A stretch of 64,000 nucleotides of DNA from Escherichia coli (lineage in GTDB: Bacteria; Pseudomonadota; Gammaproteobacteria; Enterobacterales; Enterobacteriaceae), in the NCBI RefSeq assembly GCF_003334785.1, contig NZ_QOWV01000001.1, one strand, 5' to 3'. Positions 1-56,135 of this stretch are shown here, in pieces. How positions within the stretch are numbered: the first letter of the stretch is position 1; every line of letters begins with the position of its first letter. Below the pieces are notes generated by a model. It made no database searches. It was not told where the DNA came from and saw only the letters and a list, made by a program, of their open reading frames with translations. A program made the translations under genes and the position numbers.

Positions 1-76
1 GGGTCGTTAGCTCAGTTGGTAGAGCAGTTGACTTTTAATCAATTGGTCGCAGGTTCGAATCCTGCACGACCCACCA
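1..76 (+). tRNA. lysZ: tRNA-Lys (anticodon UUU)
   Basis: 76-nt sequence with cloverleaf-compatible arms, anticodon loop cttttaa and 3' CCA; first of two identical copies. Which lys locus it is comes from the remembered K-12 order. Confidence 0.9.
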
Positions 77-208
77 ATTTAAAGGTGGTTACTGGTAGAG
101 AACGTGAAGGATAACGTTGCGTTAGCAACGGCCCGAAGGGCGAGACGAAGTCGAGTCATCCTGCACGACCCACCATCCTGAATGATTAAGGCAGCATAAT
201 CCCGCAAG

Positions 209-284
209 GGGTCGTTAGCTCAGTTGGTAGAGCAGTTGACTTTTAATCAATTGGTCGCAGGTTCGAATCCTGCACGACCCACCA
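209..284 (+). tRNA. lysQ: tRNA-Lys (anticodon UUU)
   Basis: Exact duplicate of 1-76, located immediately upstream of nadA. Confidence 0.9.
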
Positions 285-289
285 ATGTA

Positions 290-317
290 AAAAAGCGCCC
301 TAAAGGCGCTTTTTTGC
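290..317 (+). terminator. Rho-independent terminator of the tRNA operon
   Basis: GC hairpin agcgcc/ggcgct followed by a T-run. Confidence 0.75.
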
Positions 318-24249: not shown

Positions 24250-24465
<216 letters not shown>

Positions 24466-34060: not shown

Positions 34061-34159
34061 GCCTGATGCGCTACGCTTATCAGGCCTACATTTTCTCCGC
34101 AATATATTGAATTTGCGCGGTTTGTAGGCCGGATAAGGCGTTCACGCCGCATCCGGCAT
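34061..34159. repeat. Composite REP-spacer-REP element (BIME/RIP-like)
   Basis: gcctgatgcgctacgcttatcaggcc ... caatatattgaatttgc ... gtaggccggataaggcg..gccgcatccggc. Confidence 0.8.
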
Positions 34160-35344: not shown

Positions 35345-35389
35345 AAAGTGTGGATGGTAAAAATCTCATTTACACGCTAGTATCGGCAT

Positions 35390-35519
35390 AACCACTAAAC
35401 ACTCTAGCCTCTGCACCTGGGTCAACTGATACGGTGCTTTGGCCGTGACAATGCTCGTAAAGATTGCCACCAGGGCGAAGGAAGAAATGACTTCGCCTCC
35501 CGTATCTGGAAAGGTGTAC
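35390..35519 (+). ncRNA. Probable molybdenum cofactor (Moco) riboswitch leader
   Basis: Long structured 5' leader before moaA whose end overlaps the RBS; identified from the known moaA leader architecture, boundaries approximate. Confidence 0.5.
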
Positions 35520-36509
35520 ATGGCTTCACAACTGACTGATGCATTTGCGCGTAAGTTTTACTACTTGCGCCTGTCGATTACCGATGTGTGTAACTTTCGT
35601 TGCACCTACTGCCTGCCGGATGGCTACAAACCGAGCGGCGTCACCAATAAAGGCTTTCTTACCGTCGATGAAATTCGCCGGGTTACGCGCGCCTTCGCCA
35701 GTCTGGGCACCGAAAAAGTGCGCCTGACAGGAGGAGAGCCGTCTTTACGCCGCGACTTTACCGATATCATCGCCGCTGTGCGGGAAAACGACGCTATCCG
35801 CCAGATTGCGGTCACAACCAATGGTTACCGTCTGGAACGCGATGTGGCGAGCTGGCGCGATGCGGGACTTACTGGCATTAACGTCAGTGTCGACAGTCTG
35901 GACGCCCGCCAGTTTCACGCTATTACCGGGCAGGATAAATTCAACCAGGTCATGGCAGGGATTGATGCTGCATTTGAGGCCGGTTTTGAGAAGGTCAAAG
36001 TCAATACCGTGCTGATGCGTGATGTTAATCATCACCAGCTCGACACCTTTCTGAACTGGATCCAGCATCGCCCTATCCAGCTGCGTTTCATCGAACTGAT
36101 GGAAACGGGCGAGGGCAGCGAGCTCTTCCGTAAGCATCACATCTCTGGTCAGGTTCTGCGTGACGAGCTACTGCGTCGCGGCTGGATCCACCAATTACGT
36201 CAACGCAGCGACGGTCCCGCGCAAGTCTTTTGCCATCCAGATTACGCCGGAGAGATTGGCCTTATCATGCCGTATGAAAAAGACTTCTGCGCCACTTGCA
36301 ACCGCCTGCGCGTTTCCTCCATTGGTAAACTCCATCTCTGCCTGTTTGGTGAAGGCGGCGTTAACCTGCGCGATCTGCTGGAAGACGATACCCAGCAACA
36401 GGCGCTGGAAGCGCGTATTTCAGCGGCGCTGCGGGAGAAGAAACAGACCCATTTCCTGCATCAAAACAACACCGGTATTACGCAAAACTTATCGTACATT
36501 GGCGGCTAA
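35520..36509 (+). CDS. moaA: GTP 3',8-cyclase (radical SAM)
   Basis: Start placed at [17 protein letters not shown]; CNFRCTYC motif; 329 aa. Confidence 0.93.
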
Positions 36510-50764: not shown

Positions 50765-50864
<100 letters not shown>

Positions 50865-56060: not shown

Positions 56061-56135
56061 GTAGGCCTGATAAGACGCGGTAGCGTCGCATCAGGCATCT
56101 GTTGCCGGATGCGGCGTAAACGCCTTATCCGTCCT
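56061..56135. repeat. REP palindromes
   Basis: gtaggcctgataagacgcg...gcatcaggc and gccggatgcggcgtaaacgccttatccg. Confidence 0.65.

Follow-up and report, generated by a model that had tools for sequence, protein, structure and literature searches.

The spacer between the lysZ and lysQ genes at the start of the window (the whole stretch of Escherichia coli DNA that was analysed, 64,000 nt) contains a tRNA-linked repeat (TLR), and the assignment of positions 77–175 to this class, that is, to the RtT family of Rfam, is close to certain. The complete account that we favour is very probably right: the element is a short-form TLR of the lysT operon, processed with the trailer of the upstream tRNA, prone to deletion and dispensable. 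The original prediction had singled out a copy of the tRNA-Lys 3′ end in this spacer. Since an 18-nt tail of this kind belongs to the published definition of a TLR, that copy is an already known, defining feature of a long-known repeat family.

An exact copy of the tRNA-Lys 3′ end in the lysZ–lysQ spacer

The window begins inside the lysT operon, at lysZ–lysQ–nadA (Table 1). ARAGORN found two tRNA-Lys(UUU) genes, identical along their length and separated by 132 bp (77–208); the K-12 spacer has the same sequence as that of the window. The 18-mer ATCCTGCACGACCCACCA occurs exactly at 59–76, 158–175 and 267–284, and a search of the 64 kb with up to 3 mismatches gave no further sites. It had been described as the T-arm/acceptor 3′ segment, and it does span the last two T-loop bases, the T-stem 3′ strand, the acceptor 3′ strand, the discriminator base and CCA. 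The alignment of spacer against tRNA that had been proposed as a check gave 18/18 identity, which ends where C157 of the spacer meets A58 of the tRNA.

A chance match was rejected, as dinucleotide-preserving shuffles gave an expectation of 0.02 matches and none of 100 contained three. Neither ARAGORN nor the Rfam tRNA model called a tRNA or pseudogene within 77–208, and upstream of the 18-mer the tRNA-like sequence of the short form amounts to GAAGG alone, which resembles the T-stem 5′ strand.

Table 1. Features at the lysT end of the window
Feature	Position	Strand	Evidence or remark
tRNA-Lys(UUU), lysZ in K-12 naming	1–76	+	ARAGORN; Rfam tRNA 79.2 bits; names from NC_000913.3
Left copy of the 18-nt direct repeat, genuine tRNA 3′ end	59–76	+	exact match
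Short-form tRNA-linked repeat (TLR, Rfam RtT), 81 nt + 18-nt tail	77–175	+	RF00391 60 bits; present/absent unit
Closing helix, 5′ strand CGTGAAGGAT	103–112	+	pairs with 158–167, one A.G mismatch; MFE fold
Core hairpin 1, CGTTGC-GTTA-GCAACG	115–130	+	pairing in 99.2% of cells (44 copies); nearly invariant
Core hairpin 2, GCCC-GAA-GGGC	131–141	+	98.9% of cells paired; loop base A, T or C
Variable hairpin 3, GAC-GAA-GTC	144–152	+	all cells paired; middle pair GC, AU, CG or UA
TLR tail, copy of the tRNA-Lys 3′ end	158–175	+	exact match
33-nt 5′ leader of lysQ; entire spacer where the TLR is absent	176–208	+	WGS1363 spacer 4
tRNA-Lys(UUU), lysQ	209–284	+	ARAGORN; Rfam tRNA; names from NC_000913.3
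Operon terminator hairpin AAAAAAGCGCC / GGCGCTTTTTT	289–315	+	inverted repeat, 100% complementary

Past the operon terminator, CGCATCCTGCAC at 415–426 reproduces part of the tRNA-Lys 3′ segment in degenerate form (11/12 bases) and lies between two direct repeats of ATTAGGCGTAA (399–409 and 427–437). It may be a decayed TLR. The other Rfam matches above gathering score in the window, at 35388–35532 (+), 24335–24405 (+), 56064–56134 (−), 34082–34123 (−) and 50786–50828 (−), are a molybdenum cofactor riboswitch (103.6 bits), two naRNA4 and two ES036.

The spacer element is a tRNA-linked repeat

The Rfam model RF00391 (RtT) matched the spacer with 60.0 bits, against a curated gathering cut-off of 45 (E = 3.7e-11; 3.4e-9 when the whole window was scanned). 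The alignment spans window positions 8–175, and its 3′ half, 111–175, is aligned base for base. Part of the score comes from the tRNA's own T arm, which serves as the 5′ half of the model with a 43-nt insertion; the 5′ boundary given by RF00391 is therefore untrustworthy, and the closing helix that we propose has a different 5′ strand from the one in that alignment.

Elements of this kind are called tRNA-linked repeats by Stenum et al. 2021 (PMC8144298), where the first observation is credited to Egan and Landy 1978 and a catalogue to Rudd 1999. The same study counts 22 copies at ten loci in K-12, with one to five per locus; the last 18–19 bp of each copy exactly repeat the 3′ terminus of the upstream tRNA or rRNA gene. 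According to the authors, TLRs are without a known function, and a connection with the stringent response that had been claimed early on was withdrawn (PMC8144298).

The window element agrees with this description in position, tail and core. It begins one base past tRNA-Lys inside the lysT operon, its 158–175 segment equals 59–76 at 18/18 positions, and alignment shows that it shares its core with the K-12 lysT and tyrT copies. Across nine K-12 lysT and tyrT copies, an invariant core AACGTTGC..GCAACGGCCCGAAGGGCGAG..GAGTCATCC is followed by an operon-specific tail. In the K-12 lysT operon a TLR ending in the same 18-mer stands after every tRNA-Lys, giving five copies, which fits the published range; at tyrT there are four copies, each with the tRNA-Tyr 3′ end as its tail. 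The fifth lysT copy of K-12 is full-length and lies past the lysQ terminator, with another copy of the terminator behind it. The window strain has no copy after lysQ; in other respects nothing essential separates its element from those of K-12.

The lysZ–lysQ spacer is unannotated in both K-12 records, NZ_CP032667.1 and NC_000913.3, and in NZ_CP032667.1 the label 'RtT sRNA' is attached to the post-lysQ copy only. Annotation pipelines are inconsistent in labelling TLR copies.

Fold of the element and its relation to the tRNA

In the minimum-free-energy fold of the 99 nt, CGTGAAGGAT (103–112) pairs with ATCCTGCACG (158–167), and the helix so formed encloses three small hairpins. The folding energy of −34.3 kcal/mol corresponds to a modest z = −2.67, with 4 of 200 shuffles folding equally well. 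The closing helix takes up the first 10 nt of the tRNA-3′-end copy, with ACCCACCA remaining as a 3′ tail. Its 5′ strand resembles acceptor bases 5–7 together with the T-stem 5′ strand.

This 5′ strand is specific to the tRNA type and fits its own tail. For Tyr copies, the strand is GGGGAAGGAT and the tail starts with ATCCTTCCCC; for Arg copies these are CAGGGAGGAT and ATCCTCCCGG, and for Ser copies GAGATAGGG and CCCTATCTC. Variants among the Arg copies have matched changes in both strands of the helix. Counting Watson–Crick pairs only, 101 of 122 unique copies among the matches listed paired better with their own tail than with that of any other tRNA. A control that allowed G.U pairs was uninformative, as the Pro tail is rich in pyrimidines and will then pair with whichever strand is rich in purines.

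In an alignment of 44 short-form copies, from Lys and Arg, 95% of cells were paired, compared with 28–50% when the partners were slid; for the closing helix taken separately the figure was 89.5%. Changes on both sides were seen at three pairs of the closing helix and at one pair of hairpin 3 in these 44 copies. The independent covariation events are few, since the sequences are related and represent a few tRNA types with a few variants.

Long forms of the element contain more of the tRNA. When their 5′ part was aligned to the cognate tRNA, used without its tail, the best local alignment was the T-stem 5′ strand plus TTCGA. This sense half of the T arm abuts the junction with the tail exactly in 58 of 68 unique copies among the matches listed, and so the tail corresponds to the right half of a T arm that is split in its loop by the ∼65-nt core. 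The window copy is without about 38–41 nt that are present in Tyr and long Lys copies, and by sequence comparison it looks like an internal-deletion derivative of the long form.

The clearest case of a tRNA copy split at the T loop was seen in Yersinia nurmii (L063), after tRNA-Arg(ACG). There, a long TLR keeps 37 nt of the tRNA, from the 3′ side of the D stem to the T loop with small gaps, and these are followed by the conserved core and then by the 18-nt tail.

A broader reading is that TLRs are one coherent object, undescribed in these terms: a copy of the 3′ part of the upstream stable RNA (5S or one of six tRNA types), which a core of ∼65 nt interrupts at a constant place, in tRNAs the T loop, and which is provided with a closing helix that coevolves with the host gene. 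We regard this as unlikely.

The tail follows the upstream gene across genomes

A scan for the core pattern in one genome per species gave at least 120 loci. At each, the sequence past the core was compared with the 18-nt end of the nearest same-strand upstream tRNA found by ARAGORN. The tail was identical to that tRNA at all 18 positions in 116 of 138 copies among the at least 120 loci listed. By upstream tRNA, again among the matches listed, an 18/18 tail was found for Lys(UUU) in 45 of 50 copies, Tyr(GUA) in 40 of 47, Arg(ACG) in 25 of 28, Pro(UGG) in 3 of 6, Pro(CGG) in 1 of 1, Ser(UGA) in 2 of 3 and Arg(CCG) in 0 of 3. Where a tRNA has a variant 3′ end, the tail mirrors the same variant (for example at L017, L084, L102 and L106).

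Nine spacers between unlike tRNA genes were present among the matches listed (eight Lys-Val and one Tyr-Gly); in all nine the tail equals the end of the upstream gene at 18/18 positions, versus at most 12/18 for the downstream gene. After Pro(UGG) and Ser(UGA), the element directly precedes a terminator, and the locus has no further gene for a like tRNA downstream of it. A further ten copies among the matches listed, one of them in E. coli, have the 3′ end of 5S rRNA as their tail. At its cut-off, RF00391 detects the copies linked to Pro, Ser and Arg(CCG) and misses the short ones linked to Arg(ACG) as well as those linked to 5S.

The 5S-linked copies (L011, L048, L055 from E. coli, L066, L077, L078, L085, L087 and L088) correspond to the published rrA/rrB/rrF small RNAs. 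Those with the end of the 5S gene inside the locus are flanked by a direct repeat of ∼21 nt, AACTGCCAGGCATCAAATTAA, and most carry GGCAGTT, complementary to the start of their tail.

The core hairpins AACGTTGC..GCAACGGCCCGAAGGGTGA also form a 74-nt tandem intergenic repeat (L120:720–920, also at L121, L045 and L046). In this repeat a hairpin of another kind and a run of A come next, with no tRNA tail, and ARAGORN found no same-strand upstream tRNA at these loci. The repeat at L120 comes directly after an ORF, and L120 has no Rfam match at the gathering threshold. The matches L021, L026, L027, L032, L103 and L118 were left out: they come from unrelated taxa, have no nearby tRNA and no matching tail, and look like chance.

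Presence and absence in natural strains

The four long spacers of the operon measure 135, 149, 146 and 132 bp in K-12, 135, 51, 146 and 132 bp in BL21(DE3), and 35, 51, 48 and 33 bp in WGS1363. EDL933 has only four Lys genes, with one Lys unit missing, and spacers of 35, 51 and 146 bp. The differences in spacer length between strains are 98–100 bp each. WGS1363 has no element in any of its four long spacers; its spacer 4, TCCTGAATGATTAAAGCAGCATAATCCCGCAAG, is one base off window 176–208, and the filled allele differs from this empty one by exactly 99 nt, with the indel bounded by the 18-bp repeat.

The filled junction (window 130–201) is found in at most 1,986 of 5,426 complete E. coli genomes, an upper bound because separate pieces of alleles may be joined in the coverage count. 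The TLR is missing from the lysZ–lysQ site in most complete E. coli genomes. WGS1363 keeps only the 33-nt leader, so the element is dispensable, and its dispensability in natural strains argues against any important role.

Natural strains differ at this operon by exact loss of the 99-nt unit at each long spacer, by one whole Lys unit and by a 156-bp unit after lysQ. The last of these is present in K-12 (L001:2285–2476, an insertion after window 320) and absent from the window; it comprises the full-length TLR and the second lysQ terminator, and a 54-bp direct repeat, made up of the 18-mer and the terminator, flanks it. In Citrobacter werkmanii (L005, 6374–6967, −), an orthologous Lys/Val array has a TLR in its Lys-Val spacer only, and its Lys-Lys spacers are 30 and 44 nt long. 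This array is partly filled, so patchy filling of spacers extends beyond E. coli.

The direct repeats, 18 bp long and 81 bp apart, would make the element prone to exact deletion, and this proneness would in turn account for the empty alleles in natural strains. The original prediction had read the 18-mer as a footprint of tRNA-gene amplification by unequal recombination. One part of that reading holds, in that the locus does vary between natural strains by recombination or slippage at these repeats. The other part very probably fails: the 18-mer is the defining 3′ end of a conserved TLR/RtT element rather than a by-product of tRNA-Lys amplification, given that the same element stands after Pro(UGG) and Ser(UGA) without a like tRNA gene downstream, that it also stands after 5S rRNA, that the tail matches the upstream gene, and that the internal strand complementary to the tail varies with the tRNA type. 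The recombination idea fits the variation of the locus, yet it leaves the existence of the 18-mer copy unexplained.

Proposed processing of the TLR with the lysZ trailer

The lysT operon is transcribed as a single transcript of >1,100 nt, in which RNase P processing proceeds in the 3′ → 5′ direction (Agrawal, Mohanty and Kushner 2014, PMC4176162). The Lys pre-tRNAs retain 3′ trailers of up to 150 nt, for which the authors' model is removal by RNase II and PNPase with finishing by RNase T; RNase E cleaves in the long lysT spacers mainly when RNase P is inactive and otherwise has a minor role (PMC4176162). Their study does not mention the repeats (PMC4176162).

On this background, the window TLR would be transcribed within the single lysT precursor and, following the RNase P cut at lysQ, would be removed in the 3′ trailer of the lysZ pre-tRNA-Lys. 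The tail would mimic the sequence context of a genuine tRNA 3′ end, and for this reason the enzymes that form such ends would define the 3′ end of the element, either by RNase E cleavage just past CCA or by trimming with RNase II and PNPase and then RNase T.

There is a precedent in RrB, a 5S-linked TLR. Its 5′ end lies 3 nt past the 5S end, at a known RNase E site, and its 3′ end lies 3 nt past the repeat, which was proposed as a processing signal (PMC8144298). By analogy with RrB, we infer that the tail may act by mimicking a tRNA 3′ end for processing enzymes. A role of the tail as an RNase E signal is weakened in lysT, because RNase E is a minor contributor there when RNase P is active.

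The copied 3′ end had been suggested to yield aberrant processing products. Published Northern probes to the lysZ–lysQ spacer are described as detecting the full-length precursor only, in RNase P mutants, and no stable RNA from the spacer was reported in the wild type (PMC4176162).

Likeness to related elements and alternative origins

Among the closest known systems is the RtT element of the tyrT operon (RF00391, rtT/rttR), whose core hairpins are the same and whose closing helix likewise involves the copied tRNA 3′ end. In the window, this tail and the strand that pairs with it are Lys-specific, at tyrT Tyr-specific. The window element is ∼99 nt long compared with 171–178 nt, and the rtT of tyrT is described as a discrete RNA released from the operon transcript.

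The 5S-linked rrA/rrB/rrF, which lie between the two terminators of rrnA, rrnB and rrnD, also share the core, a tail taken from the upstream gene and an internal strand complementary to the first bases of that tail; the mapped ends of their RNA lie just beyond each copy of the repeat. They differ in that the upstream gene is 5S rRNA and the repeat includes bases past the mature end. RrA/B/F also bind Hfq and CsrA in vitro, which is predicted to be absent for the TLRs of tRNA operons (PMC8144298).

Attachment-site duplications by integrative elements also produce direct repeats that begin in the T loop, cover the 3′ part of the tRNA gene and are placed downstream of the intact gene. The spacer element shares a repeat that starts in the T loop and lies past an intact gene. 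It differs in having only 81 nt between the repeats, all of it TLR hairpins, with neither integrase nor island; no element DNA or integrase was found at the direct repeats. A further difference is that the TLR core is found at many tRNAs, with internal complementary strands that are specific to each.

We therefore weighed an origin as a small mobile element, or its remnant, at the 3′ parts of stable-RNA genes, with the 18-mer as a target-site duplication or attachment-site copy, and judge it very unlikely. In its favour are the clean presence and absence, with each boundary marked by the 18-bp repeat and the empty sites intact, the same core beside at least six different stable-RNA genes, the constant position of the T-loop split, and the core hairpins in tandem intergenic repeats without tRNA. 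The 81 nt between the repeats have no coding capacity, however, and no integrase was seen beside the copies. A tRNA-specific complementary strand and a sense half of the T arm are unexpected in a fixed mobile element, and the 5S-linked repeat, of 21 nt and extending past the gene end, is unlike the tRNA cases. Deletion between the 18-bp direct repeats, moreover, accounts for the empty sites without any insertion.

A phage origin was rejected: when the core was compared by blastn with 50,697 phage records, eight of them matched, none in an annotated phage gene or att site. Four are from Salmonella (two whole-genome contigs and one annotated RtT RNA among them), and the others give short matches in unannotated or unrelated records.

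That the 18-mer is a passive scar of unequal crossing-over which amplified the tRNA-Lys genes, with no wider element, we hold to be highly improbable, and for the TLR family as a whole this is already contradicted. The operon is indeed a tandem array whose units vary between strains in number and content (four or five Lys genes, the K-12 156-bp unit, the 99-nt unit with or without). The long-form relatives also hold further pieces of the cognate tRNA, and there was therefore a duplicated gene fragment somewhere in TLR ancestry. Whole-gene unequal crossing-over would not, however, yield an isolated 18-mer 81 nt past an intact gene. Nor would it be expected to produce a core with a matching tail behind 5S rRNA, or behind Pro(UGG) and Ser(UGA) where a terminator comes next, or an element carried in many genera whose complementary strand varies by tRNA type.

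That the precursor gives off the spacer element as a small RNA with a function of its own, acting as a sponge or by binding protein like 3′ETS-leuZ or RrA/B/F, is barely credible: its structure is conserved with compensatory changes, it persists across Enterobacterales and beyond, and RrA/B/F are processed RNAs (PMC8144298), but the 19 TLRs of tRNA operons score <0.01 for predicted CsrA binding (PMC8144298), no function is known for TLRs, no stable spacer RNA was reported, and the element is missing from many genomes and, in one strain, from all four long spacers.

Implications

A short-form lysT TLR, handled as part of a trailer and lost by deletion, thus remains the reading that we prefer for the lysZ–lysQ spacer. 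In practical terms, probes or primers for the tRNA-Lys 3′ end will also match the spacers. The 18-bp repeats make the spacers of tRNA operons unstable in length. The TLR family has been conserved in Enterobacterales from before the genera split, with its helices kept by compensatory changes. If the broader reading of TLRs as a coherent, split copy of the upstream stable RNA were true, it would point either to a selected RNA role in the formation of stable-RNA 3′ ends or to an unrecognised route by which such elements are built or moved.
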